A stretch of 63,943 bases of DNA, counting the filler, from Actinomycetota bacterium (GTDB taxonomy: Bacteria; Actinomycetota; Actinomycetes; JAKEEW01), in assembly GCA_046725875.1 (NCBI GenBank). It is 4 parts of 4 records of this genome, joined end to end, with 100 filler letters (N's around TTAATTAATTAA, not from the genome) between each part and the next. Parts side by side here need not be neighbours in the genome. Positions count along the whole stretch, not along the records: positions 40,208 to 57,043 come from JBKOZJ010000149.1; 3 more parts are not named here. One strand, given 5' to 3'. Shown piece after piece: positions 30,724-57,143 of the stretch; position 1 is the first letter of the stretch; every line of letters starts with the position of its first letter. The notes below the pieces were generated by a model. It saw nothing but the letters and a program-made list of their open reading frames with translations. It made no database searches and was not told the origin of the DNA. The translations under genes and the position numbers were made by a program.

Positions 30724-30823
30724 NNNNNNNNNNNNNNNNNNNNNNNNNNNNNNNNNNNNNNNNNNNNTTAATTAATTAANNNNNNNNNNNNNNNNNNNNN
30801 NNNNNNNNNNNNNNNNNNNNNNN
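30724..30823. other. Artificial contig linker
   Basis: N run containing TTAATTAATTAA (stops in all frames). Confidence 0.98.
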
Positions 30824-36979: not shown

Positions 36980-38638
36980 TTGGCGGTGATGACGCCCTGG
37001 CCGCCCATCCTCGGCTGGCTGCCCCGCTATCAACGGCGTTGGCTGTCCGGTGACGTGTTCGGCGCGTTCATGGCATGGGCGATTGTCGTACCCGAGTCGA
37101 TCGCGTATGCCGGGATCGCCGGGGTGCCACCACAGAACGCATTCTATGCGGCGCCGGTCGCATTGATCGCGTACGCGGTCTTCGGAACCTCCCGGCATCT
37201 GGTCGTGGCCGCGACCTCGGCGACCGCGATCATGTCGGCTGCGACGGTCGCGGCGGCCAGCGGCAATCCAGAGAGCGCGGCGGTCTTCTCGGCTGCGCTC
37301 GCCGTCTTTGCCGGACTCATCCTTGTCGTCGCGGGGCTGCTCAGGCTCGGCTTCGTCGCCAACTTCCTCGCCGAGCCGGTCCTCGTCGGGTTTCTCTTCG
37401 GGCTCGCCCTGATCGTCATCATTCGCCAGCTTGGCCAACTGCTCGGCCTCTCCTCAGGCGATGGGAACTTCTTCAAGCGACTGGGGCACCTAGTCGGCAA
37501 TCTGGGCGAGGCGAGCACGACCACGCTCGCGGTGGGGGGTACAGCTCTAGTGGCCCTGCTTGCCCTCGAGACCTACGCCAAGCGGCTGCCGGCCGCGCTC
37601 GTCGTGGTTGTCATCGCGATCGCGGTCTCGACCGGGCTCAACCTCGAGGACCACGGCGTCGACATGGTGGGGAAGATCCCGAGCGCTGTTCCGTCGTTTG
37701 CCGTCCCCGACGTCGGCTGGTCCGACCTCGGGAAGATGGCCGGCGGCGCATTCGGCCTGGCGCTGATCGCGTTTGCCGAGAGCTACGGCATCTCCGCCCG
37801 ACTAGCCGCCAAGAAGGGGTACGACGTCGATCCGCACCAGGAGCTCATGGCGATCGGCACGGCGAACGCCGCAGCGGGCCTGTTCCGCGGATTCGCCGTA
37901 TCCGGAAGCGCTTTGCGGGCTACCGCTGTCGAGGCGGCCGGTGGGCATTCCCCGCTGGCGTCTCTGGCTGCCGCGGGCGGCGTCCTGGTCACGGCGGCCT
38001 TCCTCACCCCGTTGTTCACCGATCTTCCGCTGGCCGTCCTCGGCGCCATCGTCATCGTGGCAGTGCGTGGCTTCCTCCGGGTGGATGAGCTTCTTCGGTA
38101 CGCGCGCCTGCAGCCCGTCGCGCTTGTCGCCGCGGTCACGGCACTCCTGGGGGTTCTGTTGTTCGACGTGCTCCCGGGCTTGCTTATCGCCGTCGCGCTC
38201 TCGTTGGCCATGTTCGTCGGGTCGACCAGCGCGCCGCGAGTGACGGCCTGGCGACCCGGGAACCGGCGCGGACTTCTGGTCGTACGCCCGGATGGCCAGC
38301 TCTACTTCGCGAACGCAAATCGCATTCGTGGGGATACGAAAGCCCTTGCCGGATCGGAGGAAGCAACCCATGTAGTCGTCCTCGACCTTTCCGGATGCTT
38401 CCGGCTGGGAGTGGCCGTGGCGGACACACTGGGGGACCTGCAGGGGGAGCTTGAACGGGACGGCAAGGCGCTGTGGCTCGCCGAGTTGAACCCCAAGGTG
38501 GCTCGAATGGTGGCCCGCTCCGGGCTCGCCGAGGCCGTGGGGCTGAATTGCGTCCATGCGACGGTAACCGGTGCCGTCGCGGCCTACGACGCCATGCTCC
38601 GACCTTCGCCATCCCGTGGCGACCCGGCGCGCCAGTGA
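36980..38638 (+). CDS. SulP/SLC26 family anion permease with STAS domain
   Basis: VPESIAYAGIAG, FGTSRHL, QELMAIG..N, LYFANA STAS. Confidence 0.9.
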   Translation: MAVMTPWPPILGWLPRYQRRWLSGDVFGAFMAWAIVVPESIAYAGIAGVPPQNAFYAAPVALIAYAVFGTSRHLVVAATSATAIMSAATVAAASGNPESAAVFSAALAVFAGLILVVAGLLRLGFVANFLAEPVLVGFLFGLALIVIIRQLGQLLGLSSGDGNFFKRLGHLVGNLGEASTTTLAVGGTALVALLALETYAKRLPAALVVVVIAIAVSTGLNLEDHGVDMVGKIPSAVPSFAVPDVGWSDLGKMAGGAFGLALIAFAESYGISARLAAKKGYDVDPHQELMAIGTANAAAGLFRGFAVSGSALRATAVEAAGGHSPLASLAAAGGVLVTAAFLTPLFTDLPLAVLGAIVIVAVRGFLRVDELLRYARLQPVALVAAVTALLGVLLFDVLPGLLIAVALSLAMFVGSTSAPRVTAWRPGNRRGLLVVRPDGQLYFANANRIRGDTKALAGSEEATHVVVLDLSGCFRLGVAVADTLGDLQGELERDGKALWLAELNPKVARMVARSGLAEAVGLNCVHATVTGAVAAYDAMLRPSPSRGDPARQ

Positions 38639-38680
38639 GGCCGTTGAGGCGTGGCGACCACTCGATACCGAAGTCTCCGC

Positions 38681-39682
38681 TCACTCGCCAAGGGTCGCGA
38701 CCATTACGGCCTTGATCGTGTGCATCCGATTCTCTGCTTGGTCGAAGACGATCGAGTGTTCGGACTCGAAGACCTCGTCCGTTACCTCCATGCCGTCGAG
38801 GCCGTACTTCTCGAAGATCTCTTCTCCCACCTTGGTCTCGCGATTGTGAAAAGCCGGCAGACAGTGTAGGAACTTGACCTTCGGATTCCCGGTCCGACGG
38901 ATGATGTCGGCATTTACTTGGTACGGCTTGAGGAGTCGGATCCGCTCCTCCCAGACCGACTCGGGCTCGCCCATCGAGACCCACACGTCGGTGTAGAGGT
39001 AATCGACACCCGTCACGCCCTCGTCGACCTCCTCGGTGAGGGTCAGCCGCGCGCCGGTCTCCGCGGCGATTTCGCGGCACGTCTCCACGAGCTTCTCGTC
39101 CGGCCACAGCTCCTCCGGTGCGCACAGCCGAATGTCCATGCCGAGTTTGCAACCGCCAACCATGAGCGAGTTGCTCATGTTGTTGTGCGCGTCGCCGAGA
39201 TAGCAGTACGCGATCTCATTGAGGTGCTTGTCGTTGTGCTCGGTCATCGTGAGAATGTCCGCCAGGAGCTGCGTGGGGTGGAACTCGTTGGTCAGCCCGT
39301 TCCAGACCGGCACGCCGGCATACTGGGCGAGAATCTCGACTGTTTCCTGCGCGAACCCGCGGTACTCGATTCCGTCGAAGCTCCGACCGAGGACGCGGGC
39401 GGTGTCCTTCATGGACTCCTTGTGGCCGATCTGGGATCCGGTCGGCTCCAGGTAGGTGACATGAGCGCCCTGCTGGTGCGCCGCGACTTCGAATGCCGTC
39501 CGCGTACGCGTCGAGGTCTTCTCAAAAATCAGTGCGATGTTCTTGCCGGCCAGGCGGGGCTGCTCGTAACCGCCGTACTTGGCAGCTTTGAGCTCGGCCG
39601 AGAGCTTTAGCAGGAACCGCAGCTCGGCGGGCGTAAAATCGAGCTCTCTGAGGAAGCTCCGGTTCCGCAAGTTGAACGCCAT
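38681..39682 (-). CDS. argF: Ornithine carbamoyltransferase (ArcB/ArgF)
   Basis: [33 protein letters not shown]. Confidence 0.93.
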
Positions 39683-39821
39683 AATGTCCTCTTTCCTTCA
39701 TGCCAGGGCCAGGGATCTGCACGGGTAGTTCGGACGCGACCAATCTAAGCGCTGCCGTAGACACCCTGGGTTGGTCGTCCAGAACGTCGCGCCCAGGTTG
39801 ATCCCCCGCTCCATGCGATGA

Positions 39822-40107
39822 CTAAGCCGAGCGGGCGGCCCAGGAGGTAGGTATGTCGGCGCCGCCTTCGGCAGCAACTCGAGCGCCGAAACGCACATGC
39901 GCCGCGTGTGATGAGATCTTCCCGGCGATGAGCGCCTCGCCCTGCCGGAAGGTAGCCGCTGGCTCTAGCAGGCCGGCCGGGACGAAGCCGAAAACCGTAC
40001 GGATGAACGCGAGGTCGGCCGGCGAGTTCATCCGCAGCAGCACCAGGTTGTCGCACTGTGAGACGGCGGTCTCCACCACCTGTTGAGGCCGCTGAGTGGA
40101 CAGAAGC
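39822..40107 (-). CDS. C-terminal part of a HerA/FtsK-like P-loop ATPase (cut by contig end)
   Basis: LLSTQRP...VSQCDNLVLLRMNS...GEALIAG...EGGAD. Confidence 0.7.
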
Positions 40108-40207
40108 NNNNNNNNNNNNNNNNNNNNNNNNNNNNNNNNNNNNNNNNNNNNTTAATTAATTAANNNNNNNNNNNNNNNNNNNNNNNNNNNNNNNNNNNNN
40201 NNNNNNN
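40108..40207. other. Artificial contig linker
   Basis: N run containing TTAATTAATTAA. Confidence 0.98.
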
Positions 40208-40378
40208 GTGAAGGTTCGTTATGGGCCGACAGACACGCTCGTTCCCGCCGGGCATGGCCGCTGGCTCACGGCGCACGTGTCGGGAGCCGTCGAGGACCTG
40301 AAGTACGGCGGCCACCTCAGCGCCTCCCCCGAGGACTACCGGGCCCAGTTCGGCTGGCTCATCGCTGACATGGTTTAG
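40208..40378 (+). CDS. C-terminal tail of an alpha/beta hydrolase (cut by contig start; not in ORF track)
   Basis: VKVRYGPTDTLVPAGHGRWLTAHVSGA...GGHLS carries the catalytic Asp and His segments. Confidence 0.65.
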   Translation: MKVRYGPTDTLVPAGHGRWLTAHVSGAVEDLKYGGHLSASPEDYRAQFGWLIADMV

Positions 40379-40584
40379 GCGGGTCACTGGGTTGGGGGAC
40401 CTGTGCTGCGACGGACGGACGGCCTGAATGGGATCTGCCCCGCCGGACCGACGACCGTTCGCCTGACAATGTGAGCCGGGAAGTCTGAGGATCCAGCCTA
40501 ATCATCGCCGGGAGGGGGTCGGCGATGCCCGGCCCCGGGTGCGGGCGGACTGATTGCCGGCGCCCGGTCTTTTTCGCTAACTCA

Positions 40585-40800
40585 GTGTGACCGGTTCTTC
40601 CACGATGACAGCGGCGAGCACCAGCGCCGGGCCGCTCTGCCAGCCCACCGCGGGAACGGTGGACCATGGCCTAGAAAATCGGCGCGGATTCGAAGATCAA
40701 AGGACCGTCACCTTGACGAAACTGGCTTCTCAGTCAATCTCACGGTCCAGTTATCTTCGAATCGCCTGATCATCTTCGAGCTCGTGGTCCACTGTTGCGG
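40585..40800. repeat. Long-hairpin element, left copy (direct repeat of 42324-42844)
   Basis: GTGTGACCGGTTCTTCC...CAGCGGCGAGCACC head; hairpin GATTCGAAGAT..GGACCGT..TTGAC / GTCAA..ACGGTCC..ATCTTCGAATC. Confidence 0.85.
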
Positions 40801-41096
40801 CCGCAGCCGCACCATCGCCCACGCCGGGGTGCGTCGCAAGTCGGCGGGTTTGACGCCTAAATGAAGACTGGTTCGGCAGCCTCGATTTCGAAGGAATGCG
40901 GCGATCGGGTGCCCGGAGATGCTAGTCACGCGGTTACTCCGAGTTCGTTACCGACGCCATCGCCGTCGGGAGCCATGGTGATCGGCCTTGTCCGCCTTGA
41001 AGGCGAACGCGACGGTGTGTCCGATGTCGACGACCCAGCTGAGCCATGGTCGCTGTTGCAGGCGGCAGCGGCGGTTGCCGGTGGCACAGCCTCAGC

Positions 41097-42014
41097 TCAC
41101 GCCGCGCCTTGATCATGGCGGCGCTGAGCGAGGATCGCCCTTAGCTCGGCACGGACGCGCGCTGGATCGCACAGCTGTGCTGGCGTGAAACGGACGACCA
41201 GAATGCCGCGGGCCATCAGCTGGGCGTCGCGCCTCAGGTCACGCTCACGATCTCCCGCGGACTGGTGCCACTGCGCACCGTCCAACTCGACGTTGACGCA
41301 CTCCTTCACAAAGTACCGGTCGAGATAGACGACACGACCGCCGAGCTCCATCCGCACCTGTGGCTCGGAAGGAGGCAGATCGGGATGGCTGAAGACGTGG
41401 TCGTAGCCCCAGAGCTCCAGTTCGCTGTGACATCCTCCACCGAGGAGGCTGATCAGCCGAACCAGTTCTGCTTTTCCAGCCAGCTTGGGCAGCTGCTTCG
41501 CCGCGGCGAGCAGCCGACCCGCCGTAGTTCGCCTGCCCCTGACCGCCACGATTGCCGGCGCCCGCCGCTCGTCCGGGTCGAGCTGCGGCCAGCTCTCCAC
41601 CACCGCGCGTTCCAGCCGGACGACCGGGAGACCGTGGCGCCACACGGTGCCGTTGGCCAGACCTTCGGAACCAACCCGTCTGTGGATGACCACGCCGGGC
41701 CCGTTCCGCAGGCGACGGTTGCCTGCCACCGTCACGTCGATCGGCTCGTCAGGAGCAGCTGGCCGCAGCCCCCACACTGCGAGGGCGGTCCGATGACTAA
41801 GCGCGCTGCCGTCTCCGGCATAGAACAGGGCAGCACGCCGGATCCGGCCAATTGCCACCATTTCCGGCAGGCAGTAGACCTGCGGAAGCACGCGGATAAC
41901 GTGCCCGGCGGCCACTGCATAGGTCAACACATGCTCGGGGATGCGGCCAACCAAGTCGCGGCGGTGGCAGACCCCGCTACCGTCAGCCAGCAGGCTGGCC
42001 AGGGCATCGTTCAT
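41097..42014 (-). CDS. AbiEi-like N-terminal + DUF559 (Vsr-like endonuclease) protein
   Basis: IRVLPQVY, ALSHRTALAVWGL, HSELE, LD...VELDGAQWH...DLRRDAQLMARGILVVRF. Confidence 0.85.
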   Translation of the reverse strand: MNDALASLLADGSGVCHRRDLVGRIPEHVLTYAVAAGHVIRVLPQVYCLPEMVAIGRIRRAALFYAGDGSALSHRTALAVWGLRPAAPDEPIDVTVAGNRRLRNGPGVVIHRRVGSEGLANGTVWRHGLPVVRLERAVVESWPQLDPDERRAPAIVAVRGRRTTAGRLLAAAKQLPKLAGKAELVRLISLLGGGCHSELELWGYDHVFSHPDLPPSEPQVRMELGGRVVYLDRYFVKECVNVELDGAQWHQSAGDRERDLRRDAQLMARGILVVRFTPAQLCDPARVRAELRAILAQRRHDQGAA

Positions 42015-42323
42015 GCAACCAGGCTCGACCCTGGACTCTCCAGTGGGGCCAGCTTTGTGGGTCGTTGTGGAGAGGCCGCCAGGCTTTCCTATCCCTGTGG
42101 AGAGTTTTGCCATTACGACCTAGAGCGACTCGCCTAGCCACCTGTTGCGAGCCTGCTCGCCAGGACGCTGCTAACAACCTCACCCGTCGCGGGCCAGGCC
42201 CAGGCTCGAATCCGCAAGGCCGCAGCGAGGCCAAGGTAGCGACGCTACGTAGGCAACCAGAACGCGGCCGGGCGGCCTCTATTCTTCACGCCACAGGGTG
42301 GGTTTAGGCAGCGTTCTCGGGCG

Positions 42324-42844
42324 GTGTGACCGGTTCTTCCGCGAGGACAGCGGCGAGCACCGGCCCGGTCCGGAAGTCGTGCCTATCGCGGACCTGGGAG
42401 TGCGCCGAGCGCCAGGCCTCCCGCCAGCCCGCGGCGGGAACGGTGGACCACCGCCCAGAAAATCAGGGGGACGCGTACCCGGCTTCCCGCCTTGGGCCGG
42501 CCGCTCGCCCAGCAGCCCATGGCGGGAAGGGTGGACCAACGCCTCGAGAATCAGGGGGACGCGTACCCGGCTTCCCCCCTTGGGCCGGCCGCTCGCCCAG
42601 CAGCCCTTGGCGGGAAGGGTGGACCATCGCCTCGAGAATCAGGGCGACGCGTACCTGGCTTCCCGCCTTGGGCCGGCCGCTCGCCCAGCAGCCCATGGCG
42701 GGAACGGTGGGCCATGGCCTAGAAAATCCGGGCGGATTCGAAGATCAAAGGACCGTCACCTTGACAAATCTGGCTGCTCGGTCGATGTCACGGTCCACTT
42801 ATCTTCGAATCCGCTGATCATCTTCGAGCTTACGGTCCATCGTT
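42324..42844. repeat. Long-hairpin element, right copy, containing an 88-bp tandem array
   Basis: Same head and hairpin as 40585-40800; GCGGATTCGAAGAT/ATCTTCGAATCCGC is a perfect 14-bp stem. Confidence 0.88.
42425..42728. repeat. 88-bp tandem repeat, three full units plus a partial fourth
   Basis: CAGCCC unit starts at 42425, 42513, 42601, 42689. Confidence 0.92.
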
Positions 42845-42908
42845 CGGAGGGAGACCGATGACAAGCGCCGGCGGGGGTCGAACCAGATGGGAGGCGGCCG
42901 CTCGGCGC

Positions 42909-43197
42909 CTCGAGGCGATGGTTCCGGCGGCTAGTCGGGTGGCTGGAAGCGGTGGTTCCGGCGGCTAGTCGGGTGGCTCGAGGCGGTGGTTCCGGCGGCT
43001 AGTCGGGTGGCTCGAGGCGGTGGTTCCGGCGGCTAGCCGGGTGGCTCGAGGCGATGGTTCCGGCGGCTAGCCGGGTGGCTCGAGGCGATGGTTCCGGCGG
43101 CTAGTCGGGTGGCTGGAGGCGATGGTTCCGGCGGCTAGTCGGGTGGCTCGAGGCGACGGTTCCGGCGGCTAGTCGGGTGGCTCGAAGTGGGTGGTTC
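42909..43197. repeat. 34-bp tandem repeat, 8 units plus a partial, overlapping the citE stop codon
   Basis: Unit CTCGAGGCGRTGGTTCCGGCGGCTAGYCGGGTGG; CTAG recurs every 34 nt from 42931 to 43169. Confidence 0.95.
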
Positions 43198-44125
43198 GGG
43201 TTAGGCCCGCGGCGCGGCCCTGGGCGGCGATGACGAGGGCCATCTTGCGGGACGCCTCGTCGATCATTTCGTCGCCGAGCATCACAGCGCCCCGCATGCC
43301 GCCTTCCGCCGAGGTGTAATAGCCGTACGCATCCAGGATGAGCTCCGCGCGGTCGTAGTCGGCCTGGCTGGGGGCATACACCTCATTCGCCGCATCAATC
43401 TGGCTCGGATGGAGCACCCACTTACCGTCGAACCCCAGCGCCGCCGACCGGGCGGCTACCCGGCGGAACCCGTCAATGTCGCGTATCTGTAGATACGGTC
43501 CGTCGATCGCCTGCAGGTCGTGGGCCCGGGCCGCCATCAAGATGCGCATGAGGATGTAGTGGTAGGCGTCGCCGACTTCGTAGCCGGGCGGCTGCTCCCC
43601 AACCACGAGGGACCGCATGTTGATCGAGGCCATGAAGTCAGCAGGGCCGAAGATGATGGTCTCCAGCCGCGATGAGGCAGCAGCTATCGCGTCCACCGCA
43701 ATCAGCCCTCGCGCGTTCTCGATCTGCGCCTCGATGCCGATGCGGCCGACCGGCAGGCCGACCGTCTGCTCGATTTGGGTGAGCAGCAGGTCGAGCCAGA
43801 CTACCTGCTCGGCGCCCTGCACCTTCGGCAGCATCACGCAGTCCAAGTTGGCGCCAGCGCCCTCAACCACCTCGATGACATCCCGGTATGTCCATCTCGT
43901 GGTCAGGTCGTTCACCCGGACGACCCGTACCTTGCCGCCCCAGTCGCCGCCGTCAAGGGCGGCGACGACGTTCTTCCTCGCGTCCTCCTTGGCGAGCGGC
44001 GCGACCGAGTCCTCCAGGTCGAGGAAGACCTGATCGGCAGGGAGCCCTTGAGCCTTGGCGAGCATCTTGTCGCTGCTGCCGGGCACCGCGAGGCAGGACC
44101 GGCGGGAGCGGAGTACAGACGCCAT
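43169..44125 (-). CDS. citE: CitE-family (HpcH/HpaI aldolase/citrate lyase) CoA-ester lyase
   Basis: RRSCLAVPGS, FLDLEDSVAP, VRVN, LPKV, QIE, GPADF, IDGPY, GKWVLHPSQI. Confidence 0.88.
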   Translation of the reverse strand: MASVLRSRRSCLAVPGSSDKMLAKAQGLPADQVFLDLEDSVAPLAKEDARKNVVAALDGGDWGGKVRVVRVNDLTTRWTYRDVIEVVEGAGANLDCVMLPKVQGAEQVVWLDLLLTQIEQTVGLPVGRIGIEAQIENARGLIAVDAIAAASSRLETIIFGPADFMASINMRSLVVGEQPPGYEVGDAYHYILMRILMAARAHDLQAIDGPYLQIRDIDGFRRVAARSAALGFDGKWVLHPSQIDAANEVYAPSQADYDRAELILDAYGYYTSAEGGMRGAVMLGDEMIDEASRKMALVIAAQGRAAGLTRTTHFEPPD

Positions 44126-44189
44126 GATCGAAGCGTAGCGACCGCGTTATGGGAGCTACGACCCACGGTGACGAAGGTCACGGTCGGCT

Positions 44190-44347
44190 CGGGGAGGTTA
44201 GCCCCTCGCTACTCGCTCGGGCCCGCCCGGTGGCCATTGGCCGGCGGCTCCAAGGCGTCGTCCGGAAGCGGGGAGGTTAGCCCCTCGCTACTCGCTCGGG
44301 CTCGCCCGGTGGCCATTGCCCGGCGGCTCCAAGGCGTCGTCCGGAAG
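44190..44347. repeat. 79-bp tandem duplication of the EamA gene 3' end
   Basis: Units 44190-44268 and 44269-44347 are nearly identical; the stop codon is at 44288-44290. Confidence 0.9.
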
Positions 44348-45256
44348 AATCGCCGAACTGCTCCCGTCGGCTGACACCACGGTCGCGACGCCGGCGAGCA
44401 GTAGCAACGCAGCAGGTATGGCGGCAGGCGGCGGTGCCTGGCCAAGCCAGACCGCGGCGAGGATTGCTGCGATTGGAACCTCGAACAGGATGGCCATTGA
44501 TACGACGGTCGCGCTCGTCGTCTTGAGTACGTGGTTGAAGACTGTGTGGCCGAGAAGCTGCGGTCCCGCCGTCAGTGCGAGCAGCTTCAGCCAATCGTCG
44601 GCCTGATATCCCCCGAGGGGGATACCGACGGCGATGCAGCAGAGCAGGAGTGCCGCCGCGCAGGTCGCATAACAGACCGCGGTGTATGTCGATGTGGAAA
44701 CCCGGCGCCGGACAACTGCGCCCGCCGTCACGTAAGCGGCGGCGAAGGCACCGCCGGCCAGCGCGAGCAGATCACCAGCGAGGGCTCGGCCCGAGACCTG
44801 CAGGTCGATACCCGTCAGCAGGAGCACGCCGGCGAAGGCGACACCTATCCCCACCCAGACCCGATGCGGCACGGCATAGCCGAGGGACCGGGCGATGAGC
44901 GCAGCCCAGATGGGCTGCGTCGACACCAGCGCGATTGAGGAAGCGACGGACGTGTAGTCAAGGCTCGGGATCCAGGTGCCGAAATGCAGAGCGAGAAGCA
45001 GGCCCGCTGCCAGGGCAAGCAACCATTCGATCCGCTCCATCTGGTGCAGCTGTTGCCGGCCTCGGCGGCTCAATCCAGGCAGCGCCACGGCGAGCGTTCC
45101 GAGCATGTTCCGCCAGAACGCGATGGCGAGCGCGGGTACTGCGGTTGCTGCGATCAAGGGCCCGGACGTACCGACTGCCAATGTGCCGACGGACAGCAGG
45201 ACGAGATGCCGCGTTGGCGGCAGCGTCGCAATTCCCGGCCGGACGTCCTCGCTCAC
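44288..45256 (-). CDS. DMT/EamA family transporter
   Basis: About ten hydrophobic helices, LALHFGTWIPSL..TSVA, GDLLALAG, QLLGH. Confidence 0.88.
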   Translation of the reverse strand: MSEDVRPGIATLPPTRHLVLLSVGTLAVGTSGPLIAATAVPALAIAFWRNMLGTLAVALPGLSRRGRQQLHQMERIEWLLALAAGLLLALHFGTWIPSLDYTSVASSIALVSTQPIWAALIARSLGYAVPHRVWVGIGVAFAGVLLLTGIDLQVSGRALAGDLLALAGGAFAAAYVTAGAVVRRRVSTSTYTAVCYATCAAALLLCCIAVGIPLGGYQADDWLKLLALTAGPQLLGHTVFNHVLKTTSATVVSMAILFEVPIAAILAAVWLGQAPPPAAIPAALLLLAGVATVVSADGSSSAILPDDALEPPGNGHRASPSE

Positions 45257-45517
45257 CGCCCAATCCTCACTCGCGCAGACGCCAAAGATCCGAGTCGTCA
45301 GCCCGGCTCCTGGCGAGCGGTGATTCGTGGCGGTGCTTAGGACGCGGCTGAACAACCACATCCTGCTGCGCGACGACCGGACGCCGCCCGGCTGAATTCC
45401 CGGTCGCCCACCTAGTGCTGCCACTTTGGGCTCCCTGCGGCCTTGCCGGATCGACCTCCGGGGTTCCCGCGGTAACGCGCCGCGTTTCGTGGGTGAATAC
45501 CTCGATCACCGCTCGCG

Positions 45518-46132
45518 ATGGGCGAGGTTGTCCAGCAGCGTCCTAGGCTGATCACTGTGGCGGAGGAGTTCGCTCGCGCGTTGGCCGAGGAGGCAACCAA
45601 GAAGGCCGGGCTGGTCTGGCTGACCGTAGCCGGTAGTCCTGGCGCTCACATGTCGGCCAGGACTCCGATCGATACCCGGTCTGCCCAGGCCGTGTGGCAT
45701 GTCTGGCACGAGAGTGCGGTCTGCGTCGTCGGCGGGGGGATCGAGCAACCACTGCCCGACTTCGGTGCTTCCGAGGTCATCGTGACGGTCCCGAGCAAGG
45801 ACAAGGGCGGACGGCTGGTGAGCTGGGTTGCCAAGCCGCGCCGGCTCGAGCCTGGCACCCCAGACTGGAAGTCGGCGGCTGCAGCGCTGCACGCGCAGCG
45901 GCTCAACCCGCCAGATGGCGAGCGAGAGCCGCAGCGCTGGGCCAAGGAGTCGCAGATTTGGCGGCTCGAACCGACCGGCGCGACGGTAGAGCAGCCGGGG
46001 GGAATGCCCGATACAAGCGAAGCGGCCGAGCCCCGACCCACGACTGCAACCACCCGTGGGCCGCTGCCATTCGTGTTCGGTCGCCGCCCCCGCCGGCGGC
46101 GCTCCGAGCGGCTCCTGCCCCCCGACGCTTAG
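45518..46132 (+). CDS. Conserved actinobacterial hypothetical protein
   Basis: EEATKKAGLVWL, VWHVWH, SKDKGGRLVSW, RLN, RWA; usual position before the mgtE-like gene. Confidence 0.7.
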   Translation: MGEVVQQRPRLITVAEEFARALAEEATKKAGLVWLTVAGSPGAHMSARTPIDTRSAQAVWHVWHESAVCVVGGGIEQPLPDFGASEVIVTVPSKDKGGRLVSWVAKPRRLEPGTPDWKSAAAALHAQRLNPPDGEREPQRWAKESQIWRLEPTGATVEQPGGMPDTSEAAEPRPTTATTRGPLPFVFGRRPRRRRSERLLPPDA

Positions 46133-46260
46133 CCCTCCCGGTTTCGCTGGTCAGGATACATGTTCGGCCGCCGGGCGGCGCTCCGAGCGCCTCCTGCCCG
46201 CAGACACCCAACCACTCGCGGTTTCGCAAGCCGGGCGCGCCCCACGAGTAGCCTCGAAGC

Positions 46261-47529
46261 GTGAGTGCGGCCCCGACCCGGATCTTCATTGCGAGGCTGG
46301 CCGGGCTGCCGGTCTTCGCTACCACGGGTGACCAGGTGGGTCGGGTCAGGGACGCCGTCGTGATGCTGCGCCTCGCCGGCCGCCCACCACATGTGGTTGG
46401 CCTCGTCGTCGAGGTTGCTCCGCGTCGGCGCATCTTCCTCCCGATGACGCGGGTGACCCAGATCGACGCGAACGAGGTAATCACGACCGGCCAGGTGGAC
46501 CTCCGCCGTTTCCGCCCGCGGCCGACCGAGACGCTGGTTGTCGGGCAGCTCCTCGACTCCACGGTCAAGCTGATCGACTCCGACCAGCAGGCGACGATCG
46601 TCGACGTGGCGATGGAGCAGAACCGGAGCAAGGACTGGCTGGTGAGCCGGGTCGCAGTCACGAAGGCGAATCGGCGCCGGGGCCTACGCCGTCGCGGCGA
46701 GACCTCGATCGTCGACTGGAGCCAGGTCAGCGGCCTGTCGTTGACCGAAGGCGCGCAGGGTGCCGCCCACCTCCTCGCCACCTTCGAGCAGCTGCGGCCG
46801 GCGGACCTCGCGAATGCGCTGCACGAGCTGACCCCGAAACGCCGCGCCGAAGTGGCGGCGGCACTCGACGATCCACGGCTGGCCGACGTGCTCCAGGAGC
46901 TTCCGGAGACCGAGCAAGTGGAGATCCTGGCCAAGCTGCCCGACTACCGTGCGGCGGACGTACTCGAAGCCATGGACCCGGACGACGCCGCGGACTTGCT
47001 CGGTGACCTGCCGCTGGACGAGGCGGAACGGCTGCTCGCGTTGATGGCGCCGGAGGAGGCGGCGCCGGTGCGGCGCCTTTTGCCGTACGGGGACAAGACG
47101 GCGGGAGGCATGATGACCAGCGAGCCGGTCATTCTCGCGCCCGATGCGACAGTAGCCGATGCGCTTGCCCGGGTGCGTAACCCAGAGCTCACCCCGGCGC
47201 TGGCGAGCTCGGTGTACGTGTGCCGCACGCCGCTCGCCACCCCAACGGGCAAGTATCTCGGCATGGCACATTTCCAGCGTTTGCTCAGGGAACCACCATC
47301 GACCCTCGTCGGCGCCATCCTGGACCTTGACCTGGAGCCGCTGCGACCCGACGATCCCCTTCCGGTCGTGACGAGCTATCTCGCTACATACAATCTGGTC
47401 GCCGCACCGGTGGTCGACGGGGACGACCGGCTGCTTGGAGCCGTCAGCGTTGACGATGTGCTCGACCACCTGCTTCCCGAAGACTGGCGCGAGTCACCGC
47501 CGGTTCCGGTGGGCGAGTCCCATGCCTAG
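46261..47529 (+). CDS. MgtE N-terminal + CBS domain protein (no membrane domain)
   Basis: PRC-like N-terminus, RPADLA, MDPDDAADLL, TAGGMMT, LLGAVSVDDVLD. Confidence 0.88.
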   Translation: MSAAPTRIFIARLAGLPVFATTGDQVGRVRDAVVMLRLAGRPPHVVGLVVEVAPRRRIFLPMTRVTQIDANEVITTGQVDLRRFRPRPTETLVVGQLLDSTVKLIDSDQQATIVDVAMEQNRSKDWLVSRVAVTKANRRRGLRRRGETSIVDWSQVSGLSLTEGAQGAAHLLATFEQLRPADLANALHELTPKRRAEVAAALDDPRLADVLQELPETEQVEILAKLPDYRAADVLEAMDPDDAADLLGDLPLDEAERLLALMAPEEAAPVRRLLPYGDKTAGGMMTSEPVILAPDATVADALARVRNPELTPALASSVYVCRTPLATPTGKYLGMAHFQRLLREPPSTLVGAILDLDLEPLRPDDPLPVVTSYLATYNLVAAPVVDGDDRLLGAVSVDDVLDHLLPEDWRESPPVPVGESHA

Positions 47530-47610
47530 AGCGCCACGACACTCGCCAACGCGCGGATCGCGTCGAACTCTGCTGGATGTGCTGCGCTGAATGTGCTCCG
47601 GGAGGGCCCG

Positions 47611-48105
47611 ATGGCTGAGCGAACACTGAACCGGCTCGATATCCCCAGGGAGATCCGACGCGGCCTGCCCCGGCCCAGCTATGACGCGGAGGCGTTCGGG
47701 CGCGTGTCGGAGCGGATCGCCCGCTTCATCGGCACCGGTCGGTTCCTCGTCTACATGACGATCGTCGTCATCGTCTGGATCGCCTGGAACGTCCTCGCCC
47801 CGCTCGGCTGGCGCTTCGACGAGTATCCGTTCATCTTCTTGACCCTCGCCCTATCGCTCCAGGCGTCCTACGCGGCGCCGCTGATCCTGCTTGCCCAGAA
47901 CCGACAGGCGGACCGGGATCGGGTGCAGTACGAACAGGACCGGGCCCGGGACGACCGTAGCCTGACGGACACCGAGTACTTGACGCGCGAGGTGGCCGGC
48001 CTGCGGATCGCGCTTGGCGAGGTGGCGACCAGAGACTTCCTCCGGTCCGAGATTCGTGCCCTCCTCGATGAGCTGAACCCCCGCCACACGCCAGCCGGCC
48101 GCTAG
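47611..48105 (+). CDS. DUF1003 membrane protein
   Basis: IARFIGT, FDEYPFIFLTLALSLQASYAAPLILLAQNRQ. Confidence 0.9.
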   Translation: MAERTLNRLDIPREIRRGLPRPSYDAEAFGRVSERIARFIGTGRFLVYMTIVVIVWIAWNVLAPLGWRFDEYPFIFLTLALSLQASYAAPLILLAQNRQADRDRVQYEQDRARDDRSLTDTEYLTREVAGLRIALGEVATRDFLRSEIRALLDELNPRHTPAGR

Positions 48106-48152
48106 AGCACGGCGCCGATCAGGCTGGATCACCTCGACGTACGATACTGGAC

Positions 48153-49304
48153 ATGGGTCCCCTCCCGACTTCCGAGCAAATCCACGCCGCCCTTGCGACG
48201 GTGAAGGATCCAGAGATTCGCCGACCGATCACTGATCTCGAGATGGTCAAGTCGGTAGAGATCGGCGACGGCGGCGCGGTACGGGTTGCTGTCTTCTTGA
48301 CGGTTGCCGGATGTCCACTCCGGGACACGATCATCCGGGATGTAACCGCGGCAGTTTCGGCGGTGCCCGGCGTGACAGACGTGTTCGTGGATCTCGACGT
48401 GATGAGTCAGGAGCAACGACAACAACTGCAGACCAAGCTGCGGCAGGAGCGCGGGGGTGGCCCGGCCCGCGAGGTTCCCTTTGCTCGTCCCCAGTCGCTG
48501 ACGAAGGTCTACGCGGTCGCCTCGGGGAAGGGCGGCGTCGGCAAATCCTCCGTAACCGTCAATCTGGCCGCGGCCATGGCGGCCAGCGGTCTATCCGTCG
48601 GACTGATCGACGCGGACATCTACGGCCACTCGGTGCCTCGGATGCTCGGCGTCACCGGAATGCCGACCAAGGTCGAGGACATGATCATGCCACCATCCGC
48701 GCGCGGCATACCAGTCATCTCGATCGGGATGTTCACCGGCGGCAACCGGCCGGTGGTCTGGCGCGGTCCCATGCTGCATCGCGCGGTCGAGCAGTTCCTG
48801 GCCGACGTCTACTGGGGCGACCTCGATGTACTACTGATCGACCTGCCACCGGGAACCGGTGACGTCGCGATCTCGATCGCGCAGCTCGTGCCCAACGCGG
48901 AGATCTTGGTCGTTACGACACCGCAGATTGCGGCCGCGGAGGTCGCAGAACGCGCGGGCATGATCTCCAGCCAGACCCACCAGCGGGTTGCCGGTGTGAT
49001 CGAGAACATGTCCGGTTTGCCGTGCCCGCACTGCGGCGAGCGCGTCGACGTCTTCGGCTCGGGAGGCGGGCAACGCGTTGCCGCGACGCTCACCAACGCG
49101 CTCGGCTACGACATCTCGGTCCTTGGAGAGATCCCGCTCGACGTTCGATTGCGCGAAGGTGCTGACGCCGGCCGGCCGCTTGTACTAGACGACCCCGACG
49201 CGCCTGCGGCGAAGGAGCTACGTGCGATCGCGGAGCGGCTCGGCCATCGGTCCCGTGGTCTGGCCGGCCGCTCCCTCGGCCTCACCCCGGTAACCCGCCG
49301 CTAG
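48153..49304 (+). CDS. mrp: Mrp/NBP35 Fe-S cluster carrier ATPase
   Basis: SGKGGVGKS, DADIYG, WRGPML, DLPPGTGD, ENMS..CPHC. Confidence 0.95.
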   Translation: MGPLPTSEQIHAALATVKDPEIRRPITDLEMVKSVEIGDGGAVRVAVFLTVAGCPLRDTIIRDVTAAVSAVPGVTDVFVDLDVMSQEQRQQLQTKLRQERGGGPAREVPFARPQSLTKVYAVASGKGGVGKSSVTVNLAAAMAASGLSVGLIDADIYGHSVPRMLGVTGMPTKVEDMIMPPSARGIPVISIGMFTGGNRPVVWRGPMLHRAVEQFLADVYWGDLDVLLIDLPPGTGDVAISIAQLVPNAEILVVTTPQIAAAEVAERAGMISSQTHQRVAGVIENMSGLPCPHCGERVDVFGSGGGQRVAATLTNALGYDISVLGEIPLDVRLREGADAGRPLVLDDPDAPAAKELRAIAERLGHRSRGLAGRSLGLTPVTRR

Positions 49305-49376
49305 GGATACTGCTCAGCAGCGTCGGCGGTGGCCGAAGGACCGCGGGATGCATGGCAAGGCCGCATCCTCGCGTCG

Positions 49377-49766
49377 CTAGGTTGCCTCAGGGTCGAAGGG
49401 TGCTTCGGGAGGTTCCGCAGGCCTCGCAGTGGAGGTCGGGGACCCCGCGTCGAGCCGAGACCCATTCGCGCCGGTCGGCGACGCGCGGCGCTGGCGGTTG
49501 CGTGGACCGTCCGCGTCCGCCTCGTCCGCCGGATCGAGCAGGTGCTTGCGTACGAAGGTCCGTGGGTTCAGGTCCGCAATATCAAGATCACGGAACTCCG
49601 GACCCAGGCTCTCCTGCAGGTCATTGCGCGCCCCAGACACCATCTGGCGCAGCTGCCGGAGCATCCGACCGGCGTCGGCGGCGACTTTCGGCAGGTGCTC
49701 TGGCCCGAAAACGATCAGGGCGATGATCGCGAGCGCGATCATCTCCCCAAAACCTATATCAAACAC
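49377..49766 (-). CDS. tatB: Twin-arginine translocase subunit TatB
   Basis: MFDIGFGE...FGPEHLP...LNPRTFVRKHL...PFDPEAT. Confidence 0.9.
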   Translation of the reverse strand: MFDIGFGEMIALAIIALIVFGPEHLPKVAADAGRMLRQLRQMVSGARNDLQESLGPEFRDLDIADLNPRTFVRKHLLDPADEADADGPRNRQRRASPTGANGSRLDAGSPTSTARPAEPPEAPFDPEAT

Positions 49767-57043: not shown

Positions 57044-57143
57044 NNNNNNNNNNNNNNNNNNNNNNNNNNNNNNNNNNNNNNNNNNNNTTAATTAATTAAN
57101 NNNNNNNNNNNNNNNNNNNNNNNNNNNNNNNNNNNNNNNNNNN
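57044..57143. other. Artificial contig linker
   Basis: N run containing TTAATTAATTAA. Confidence 0.98.

Follow-up and report, generated by a model that had tools for sequence, protein, structure and literature searches.

A DUF559 nuclease gene bracketed by direct copies of a dispersed 142-nt palindrome in an actinobacterium: a candidate nuclease and palindrome system

What connects a solitary nuclease gene with the long hairpin-forming repeats on either side of it? The question is raised by a stretch of 63,943 bases from an Actinomycetota bacterium (assembly GCA_046725875.1; the whole stretch is called the window here), in which a gene for an AbiEi-like DNA-binding part joined to a DUF559 nuclease lies between two copies of a 142-nt nested palindromic element. 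A sequence-only reading of this DNA had proposed that the protein recognises or propagates its flanking hairpins. On balance we lean towards such an answer, namely a vertically inherited nuclease and palindrome system resembling REPIN/RAYT or Ssn/SRM, with an enzyme of the PD-(D/E)xK type that would bind, cleave and mobilise its palindrome. The element is dispersed in the genome, its hairpin is under constraint, its linkage to the gene is recurrent, the locus is conserved, and the three solo sites compared are empty in the sister genus. On the genomic side, all the checks proposed with the sequence-only reading favoured it.

The window consists of four contigs (C147, C148, C149 and C161) of one metagenome-assembled genome (MAG), with joining spacers (runs of N/TTAATTAATTAA) at positions 30724-30823, 40108-40207 and 57044-57143. 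This MAG (G000) has 197 contigs, 3.76 Mb and 67.6% G+C, and is 89% complete, so that copy counts given for it are lower bounds. The nuclease gene and its flanking copies are situated at the start of C149 (window position = C149 position + 40207). Contigs C147, C149 and C161 each open with a duplicate of the end of another contig (C113, C28 and C58, respectively); since the first 141 bases of C149 are the end of C28, the gene upstream of the nuclease locus runs on into C28. Among public reads, one soil DNA run held 0.09 of the words and no RNA run was found; contigs from the soil run were scattered pieces of the locus, with no contig joint across the gene or the element.

The nuclease gene and its flanking palindromes

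The gene and the two copies that bracket it are as follows.

41097..42014, minus strand: intact gene (305 aa) for an AbiEi-like winged helix-turn-helix, a middle domain and a C-terminal DUF559/Vsr-like nuclease
40585..40625, plus strand: head of copy A, 41 nt, 93% identical to 42324-42364
40655..40796, plus strand: core of copy A, 142-nt nested imperfect palindrome, downstream of the 3' end of the gene
42324..42364, plus strand: head of copy B, 41 nt, 93% identical to the head of copy A
42703..42844, plus strand: core of copy B, 142 nt, upstream of the 5' end of the gene and on the opposite strand to it

The two cores are identical at 125 of 142 positions, and the bodies that contain them (40641-40796 and 42689-42844) at 88% over 156 nt. 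The heads had no match in the genome beyond copies A and B. Based on a covariance model, R1, built from 18 copies of the element (its E-values are rough), copy A scored 150.8 bits on the plus strand and 84.2 bits on the minus strand, and copy B 156.6 and 93.0 bits. Both score far higher on the plus strand and are therefore direct copies, in agreement with the sequence-only reading of two same-orientation copies around a lone minus-strand gene. Folded as RNA, the plus strand of the core gave one long nested hairpin (-67.6 kcal/mol, z -7.8, equalled by 0 of 200 shuffles); the features described from the sequence alone, an inner hairpin inside a looser outer stem among them, are all present, and each core is a 142-nt nested palindrome.

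The ATG at 42014 is the start used by homologues and yields a protein of 305 aa. Pfam DUF559 (PF04480) matched residues 265-324 of a 338-aa open reading frame (ORF) with 23.7 bits (cut-off 20.6), and most homologues are precomputed as PF04480 plus PF18741. PADLOC assigned residues 25-169 to AbiEi (E 5e-15). An AlphaFold2 model (pLDDT 92) was compared by Foldseek: its first two thirds matched AbiEi (6Y8Q, E 4e-8) and Rv2827c (1ZEL, E 2e-5), while the last third matched the I-Bth0305I catalytic domain (3R3P, E 1e-2, TM-score 0.70 normalised to the target) and the DUF559 protein NGO0050. The N-terminal ~180 residues thus combine an AbiEi fold with an AbiEi profile match, and the AbiEi/DUF559 assignment made from the sequence holds. 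The window protein conserves all 29 columns that are invariant among 42 homologues, together with the core motifs SELE, YLD, ELDG..H and RERD. Residues S197, E200, D232, E243, D245, H250, E257, D259 and D263, which are invariant or nearly so in the homologues, are also kept, and we take the conserved acidic and histidine residues to be catalytic. NCBIfam held no family for the protein and Pfam gave no GIY-YIG match; a HUH Y1 transposase was likewise not found, since Pfam, PADLOC and the fold search returned AbiEi and DUF559 only. As had been noted, no AbiEii gene accompanies the gene, its neighbours being an alpha/beta hydrolase, an HpcH aldolase and an EamA transporter.

Dispersal, constraint and turnover of the element

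Searches by blastn, nhmmer and the covariance model identified 19 full-length copies of 140-144 nt on 18 contigs of the MAG, plus three partial copies; the pair at the nuclease gene is therefore not a local duplication. The length stays at 140-144 nt although identity to copy A falls to ~69-80%. The ends are the inverted motif AACGGTGGACC ... GGTCCACTGTT and the entire element is palindromic; as read from the copies, each arm appears to be made of two ~41-nt modules carrying the word GGWCC (GGACC/GGTCC). In oligonucleotide counts made to look for avoidance as a sign of restriction-modification, GGWCC had an observed/expected ratio of 0.82, and GATC, TCGA, TGATCA and others were near 1, values that say nothing either way.

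Pairing in the full hairpin was kept in 82.6% of 897 cells compared to 79.2% in shuffles, none of 500 shuffles reaching the observed value, and two-sided changes occurred in 16 of 50 pairs against 11.1 expected (3 of 500 shuffles reached 16); the structure used was that of copy A, which somewhat favours that structure in the result. Slid controls gave 28-44%. Mismatches on the plus strand were G-T in 71 and A-C in 39 of the 897 cells. This G-T bias with kept pairing, the strong fold and the strictly conserved length would also suit a family of structured small RNAs or cis-regulatory RNAs to which the nuclease gene is a bystander. We consider such an origin very improbable, because the minus strand folds nearly as well as the plus strand (z -6.4), the orientation to neighbouring genes is mixed (the upstream gene is on the same strand as the copy in 10 cases and on the opposite strand in 8), the sites are not conserved between genera, and a scan of window positions 38000-46000 with Rfam 15 gave no match at the gathering score. 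The only Rfam hit, the microRNA mir-9447 (32.7 bits compared to a gathering score of 67), was below threshold, driven by the hairpin, and judged spurious.

The copies are intergenic or nearly so. One full-length and one partial copy overlap the 3' ends of ORFs (by 19 and 68 nt), and only 1 of the 18 copies with both neighbours known lies between divergent genes. The genes beside the copies are unrelated housekeeping genes. Several of the solo copies on C9, C160, C15, C114, C60 and C43 are near DNA-damage or proteostasis genes (Y-family polymerase, ATP-dependent ligase, SRAP, PriA, ClpX, ClpB/C), which may be due to chance. No insertion sequence (IS) carrying the terminal motif of the element was found in the assembly, where 10 stray 11-mers of the motif occurred outside known copies, none of them at an IS.

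Three solo sites, beside clpX, ilvD and def, were compared with G003, a genome of the sister genus g4, and all three were empty there, with a shorter spacer; a second g4 genome, G006, was likewise empty and shorter at the two sites compared, clpX and ilvD. The spacers differed by ~430-460 nt at ilvD, ~730 nt at def and ~2.8 kb at clpX. At the last of these an EF-G-like GTPase gene and the element copy (G000:C60:20257-22248) form a ~2.8-kb block that is missing in G003 and G006. Conversely, the genes flanking 18 element loci of g4 had none in common with those flanking G000 copies, except for one weak 31% match. Judged from these sequence comparisons, the solo copies appear to be mobile on the time scale that separates the genera.

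Linkage of gene and palindrome

Copies on both sides of a gene occur in G000 at the window nuclease gene only, which is the one intact gene of its clade in this genome. Within the family, R1 detected the element in three of six other genomes, all of genus g4 (13 places in G003, 7 in G005 and 4 in G006), as diverged 143-nt copies, and in 0 of 34 genomes of other families. The best orthologues of the window gene, on G003:C23 and G006:C201 (57-58% identity), were placed by tblastx at the same locus as in the window, beside the orthologue of the hydrolase gene of C28; the stability of the locus is judged on these two genera, the only ones that carry the 142-nt element. In G003 one element lies 215 nt upstream of the orthologous gene, and downstream there is another in direct orientation, truncated where the contig ends (60 of 69 positions identical between the two); in G006 a single element lies 51 nt downstream. 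The paralogues on G003:C128 and G006:C88 have a variant element upstream in which TGTGCG replaces TGGACC. At E <= 0.001 a full-length match was present at 3 of 13 homologue loci (43 kb searched), each within ~260 nt of the gene, compared with a background of 4-13 element places per 3.6-4.3 Mb in those genomes. Gene-flanking copies share 79-92 of ~147-153 positions between genera, as against 125 of 142 between copies A and B; being alike within G000 and unlike between genera, they point to concerted evolution or continued re-seeding.

Flanking palindromes were also found at homologues beyond the sister genus. A profile of 42 homologues yielded 79 loci, mostly from Micromonospora, Catellatospora, and Frankiaceae or Mycobacteriales MAGs, which were scanned for long hairpins by a procedure of our own with its own threshold. 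Of 47 long hairpins, 29 were within 200 nt of gene ends: 21 on the downstream side and 8 on the upstream side, with 0 inside the gene and 18 in the other 28 bins. A long hairpin was found no more than 450 nt from the gene at 28 of the 79 loci. One hairpin class begins with (G)ACGNTGG, like the window element, and forms an inverted pair on both sides of the gene at L108, L140 and L169, and by BLAST at L114. R1 matched the palindromes of L108 through inner-hairpin positions 38-104; the 142-nt element thus looks like a ~60-nt type with an added outer module. Co-variation of repeat and protein is seen to the extent that in a quick tree the hairpin classes grouped by protein clade; related genes share hairpin labels by descent in any case.

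In four of these genomes the palindrome beside the gene was also dispersed: at 40 places scored of 94 candidates in G046, with 80 matches on both strands in Catellatospora G047 (40 of 92 candidates scored), at ~20 places in G048, and in G049 as the gene's own pair plus ~6 further places. The families of G000, G046, G047, G048 and G049 differ, yet each matches the palindrome by the gene of its own genome. G046 has in addition seven inverted doublets 290-390 nt apart, five of which share inner sequence, and in which only the ends match the gene unit, as is typical of REPINs and MITEs (MITE, miniature inverted-repeat transposable element). At L194-L200 this genome has multi-copy elements of ~400 nt with two inverted palindrome clusters around a common ~190-nt core; as their ends match those of the DUF559 gene unit of G046, they look like REPIN- or MITE-like derivatives.

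Several observations weigh against a nuclease that spreads its own palindrome. Contig C97 of the MAG holds a 516-nt piece of the gene that is 97.1% identical to the window gene and abuts an element copy, which itself reaches only 87.6-89.9% identity with copies A and B. As the gene piece is closer than its element, a gene landing beside a resident element fits better here than a unit moving with its own ends. The mobile party could accordingly be the gene, as a free-standing homing-endonuclease-like gene whose product cuts the palindrome and which break repair, with the repeats as homology, places within or next to resident elements, the palindromes being spread by other means. Two full direct flanking copies, here and in G003, are what repair templated on the repeats would leave, and the resemblance of the nuclease domain to that of I-Bth0305I also agrees. 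This is the main rival, and the C97 case fits it, though we think it unlikely overall: gene remnants occur at only 1 of the 17 other full-length copies, the solo copies would still need a source of mobility, and the clade has one intact place per genome, at a single orthologous locus in two genera, which argues for vertical persistence and not for repeated homing. The C97 locus itself (G000:C97:16314-17237, L067) is a patchwork beside the element copy, in which the DUF559 fragment is fused in frame to part of an ECF sigma factor (its region 2 alone) in a chimeric ORF of 307 codons, followed by a truncated histidine-kinase reading frame.

A further point on the same side comes from a Micromonospora clade, where a different hairpin class (CATGATCA...TGATCATG, 62-68 nt) lies 1-17 nt past the stop codon, is single copy in three genomes, and was absent by exact pattern in two; dispersal is thus not universal. 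Such a hairpin could function as a terminator or operator. Proteins of the AbiEi type bind DNA and regulate their own genes, and the palindromes might in general be the gene's own control, with an autoregulatory operator of the AbiEi kind on the upstream side and a terminator at the other end; the dispersed copies would then be an unrelated MITE family, moved by some transposase, that happens to share or has captured the sites. The AbiEi match of the N-terminal part of the window protein and the scarcity of elements in divergent promoter regions are consistent with this. We nevertheless doubt it, since several lineages have one and the same palindrome at either end of the gene, direct or inverted, with stems of 21-28 bp and lengths of 57-142 nt that are far beyond those of usual terminators. 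Other genes in the 79 loci lack such hairpins (the 18 spread over the other bins), no IS shares the terminal motif in the assembly, and the dispersed families of the five genomes differ while each matches the palindrome at its own gene.

The remaining points against a self-spreading system concern absences. A paralogue with 45% identity on C26 has no element within 1.5 kb, and 48 of 80 homologues on the tree had no long hairpin at the scan threshold. Alignments at two empty sites gave no clean edges from which a target-site duplication or an exact insertion boundary could be read. The 6-mer GGACCG/CGGTCC was not enriched near the gene around the 79 homologous genes; by these counts the link to the gene is in the palindromes and not in this word. 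IS elements often fail to assemble, and one with the ends of the element could be missing from an assembly that is 89% complete. Inside the C26 paralogue there is a 63-nt inverted repeat ending GGACCGTC/GACGGTCC (G000:C26:14680-14742; L030 1681-1743), in the coding region for YLD...ELDG, which probably follows from the protein motifs.

The DNA around the gene is rich in other repeats.

40797..41027, plus strand: tail of the long form of the element, common to solo copies on C57 and C61 and partly to those on C139 and C9
42162..42324, no strand assigned: second dispersed repeat, unrelated to the element, between the gene and copy B (blastn)
42425..42732, plus strand: 88-nt tandem array of 3.5 units (Tandem Repeats Finder, 90% matches, score 490)
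42909..43185, plus strand: 34-nt x 8 tandem array on the side of copy B that faces away from the gene (Tandem Repeats Finder, 95% matches)

The gene had been described as lying in non-coding DNA, which stands, with the correction that this DNA also holds the unrelated repeat at 42162-42324 and the 34-nt array. Copy A, C57 and C61 (partly C139 and C9) form a subfamily with the extra ~230-nt tail; by blastn, window positions 40629-41027 are 80% identical to C57 over 406 nt, and 40640-40957 are 79% identical to C61. Copy B is longer than copy A because its 3.5-unit array re-copies the 5' part of the element: each 88-nt unit repeats the left outer arm, and its first 40-44 nt match the 5' part of element copies. 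Subtracting the 163 nt of the second repeat and three extra units of 88 nt leaves a distance of ~260 nt from the gene to copy B. The second repeat (~160 nt) contains a GTAGCG.CGCTAC palindrome and has copies on C139, C15, C7, C84, C43 and C102 that are 77-85% identical by blastn, the one on C139 likewise adjoining an element copy. A 14-nt stretch of the 34-nt array is exactly complementary to a piece of the 88-nt units (inverted pairs I6-I8, ACCATCGCCTCGAG / CTCGAGGCGATGGT). Broader similarity between the 34-nt unit and the element core found no support, with only short local matches beyond this complement. The tandem arrays on both sides of copy B may have been left by outer arms that were broken and repaired repeatedly. 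At 44190-44347, between the genes for the aldolase and EamA, there is a 79-nt x 2 tandem repeat (97% matches).

The block from the aldolase gene to ~49.7 kb (window 43169-49724) is inverted relative to G003:C23 and G006:C201/C115. One breakpoint is on the copy-B side of the nuclease gene; the other showed no element copy. The presence in one spacer of another repeat family and of three tandem arrays, together with an inverted neighbourhood and the patchwork at C97, would be in keeping with two kinds of junk DNA piled up by chance in a rearrangement-prone, repeat-rich spacer. The link recurs not only at the orthologous locus but also at paralogues and in distant genera with other palindromes, which makes mere co-location scarcely credible.

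Proposed mechanism and comparison with known systems

The nuclease and palindrome system favoured here would work as follows. The window gene would be flanked by two master copies of the 142-nt palindrome, whose repeated modules the winged helix may recognise on duplex DNA or on an extruded hairpin. The DUF559 nuclease would then nick or cut at the modules, and repair or replication of the lesion would copy the palindrome into new intergenic sites, occasionally with the gene itself; the same copying would keep the copies within one genome alike. A wider proposal, which we regard as evenly balanced, is that AbiEi-winged-helix/DUF559 nucleases are the dedicated enzymes of an unrecognised class of long-lived, vertically inherited actinobacterial palindromic replicators. 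These would have taken up the life style of REPIN-RAYT and Ssn-SRM independently for a third time, with enzymes that recognise the hairpin or cruciform of their own repeat and drive its copying and homogenisation, and the 142-nt element would be a nested, module-duplicated derivative of a ~60-nt ancestral palindrome.

The DUF559 family is large and is not known to have an established role; in many actinobacterial genomes there are several AbiEi-DUF559 genes, whose annotation goes no further than "endonuclease domain-containing protein". If the proposal is correct, the family gains a function and a class of actinobacterial intergenic repeats gains an origin. A third independent pairing of enzyme and repeat, after RAYT and Ssn, would suggest that such partnerships are a general solution, and the enzymes could find practical use as novel nucleases with structure or sequence specificity. 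Among titles and abstract openings, subscription journals being outside the scope of the search, we found no paper that connects DUF559 or AbiEi-DUF559 genes with palindromic repeats.

Several known systems share parts of this arrangement. The AbiE type IV toxin-antitoxin system has the AbiEi-type DNA-binding domain of the window protein, but here there is no adjacent AbiEii gene and the C-terminus is a nuclease. MITEs such as ERIC and Correia are likewise imperfect palindromes of 100-150 nt with terminal inverted motifs, intergenic, in either orientation, and variably present among relatives; the window element differs in having a constant non-transposase gene neighbour and no parent IS or transposase with the same ends in the 89% complete assembly. 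With EDxHD/Vsr-like homing endonucleases (I-Bth0305I, 3R3P) the window protein shares the fold of the catalytic domain and a selfish-DNA context, but its gene is outside any intron or intein, has whole palindromes on either side and encodes a DNA-binding part of the AbiEi type.

REP (repetitive extragenic palindromic) sequences are ~20-40 nt long, and the nested 142-nt repeat is much longer. The likeness to REPIN/RAYT lies in a single-copy gene flanked by cognate palindromes, dispersal of the same palindromes between genes, doublet forms (here in G046), and vertical inheritance at a stable locus. The host here is an actinobacterium, the flanking copies are direct and not inverted, and the enzyme is an AbiEi-type winged helix-turn-helix with a Vsr-like PD-(D/E)xK domain instead of a HUH/Y1 transposase. 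The REPIN-RAYT properties that are shared here are taken from 10.1101/2022.05.22.493013, 10.1101/2021.07.10.451892 and PMC3337134.

Ssn/SRM is a published precedent: according to PMC11893778, a small GIY-YIG nuclease gene has its own hairpin repeat (NTS-like), also dispersed in the genome, on one side or on both; 42% of homologues are flanked on both sides, every homologue has a repeat variant of its own, and the enzyme cuts single-stranded DNA near the repeat. DUF559, Vsr and RAYT occur 0 times in that paper. The window locus has in common with it a small nuclease gene with a flanking and dispersed hairpin repeat, and differs in that the fold is DUF559/Vsr-like and not GIY-YIG and that the system is known from sequence alone. 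By analogy, then, the arrangement resembles REPIN/RAYT and Ssn/SRM in the way it would work, but departs from both in the defining feature of the enzyme.

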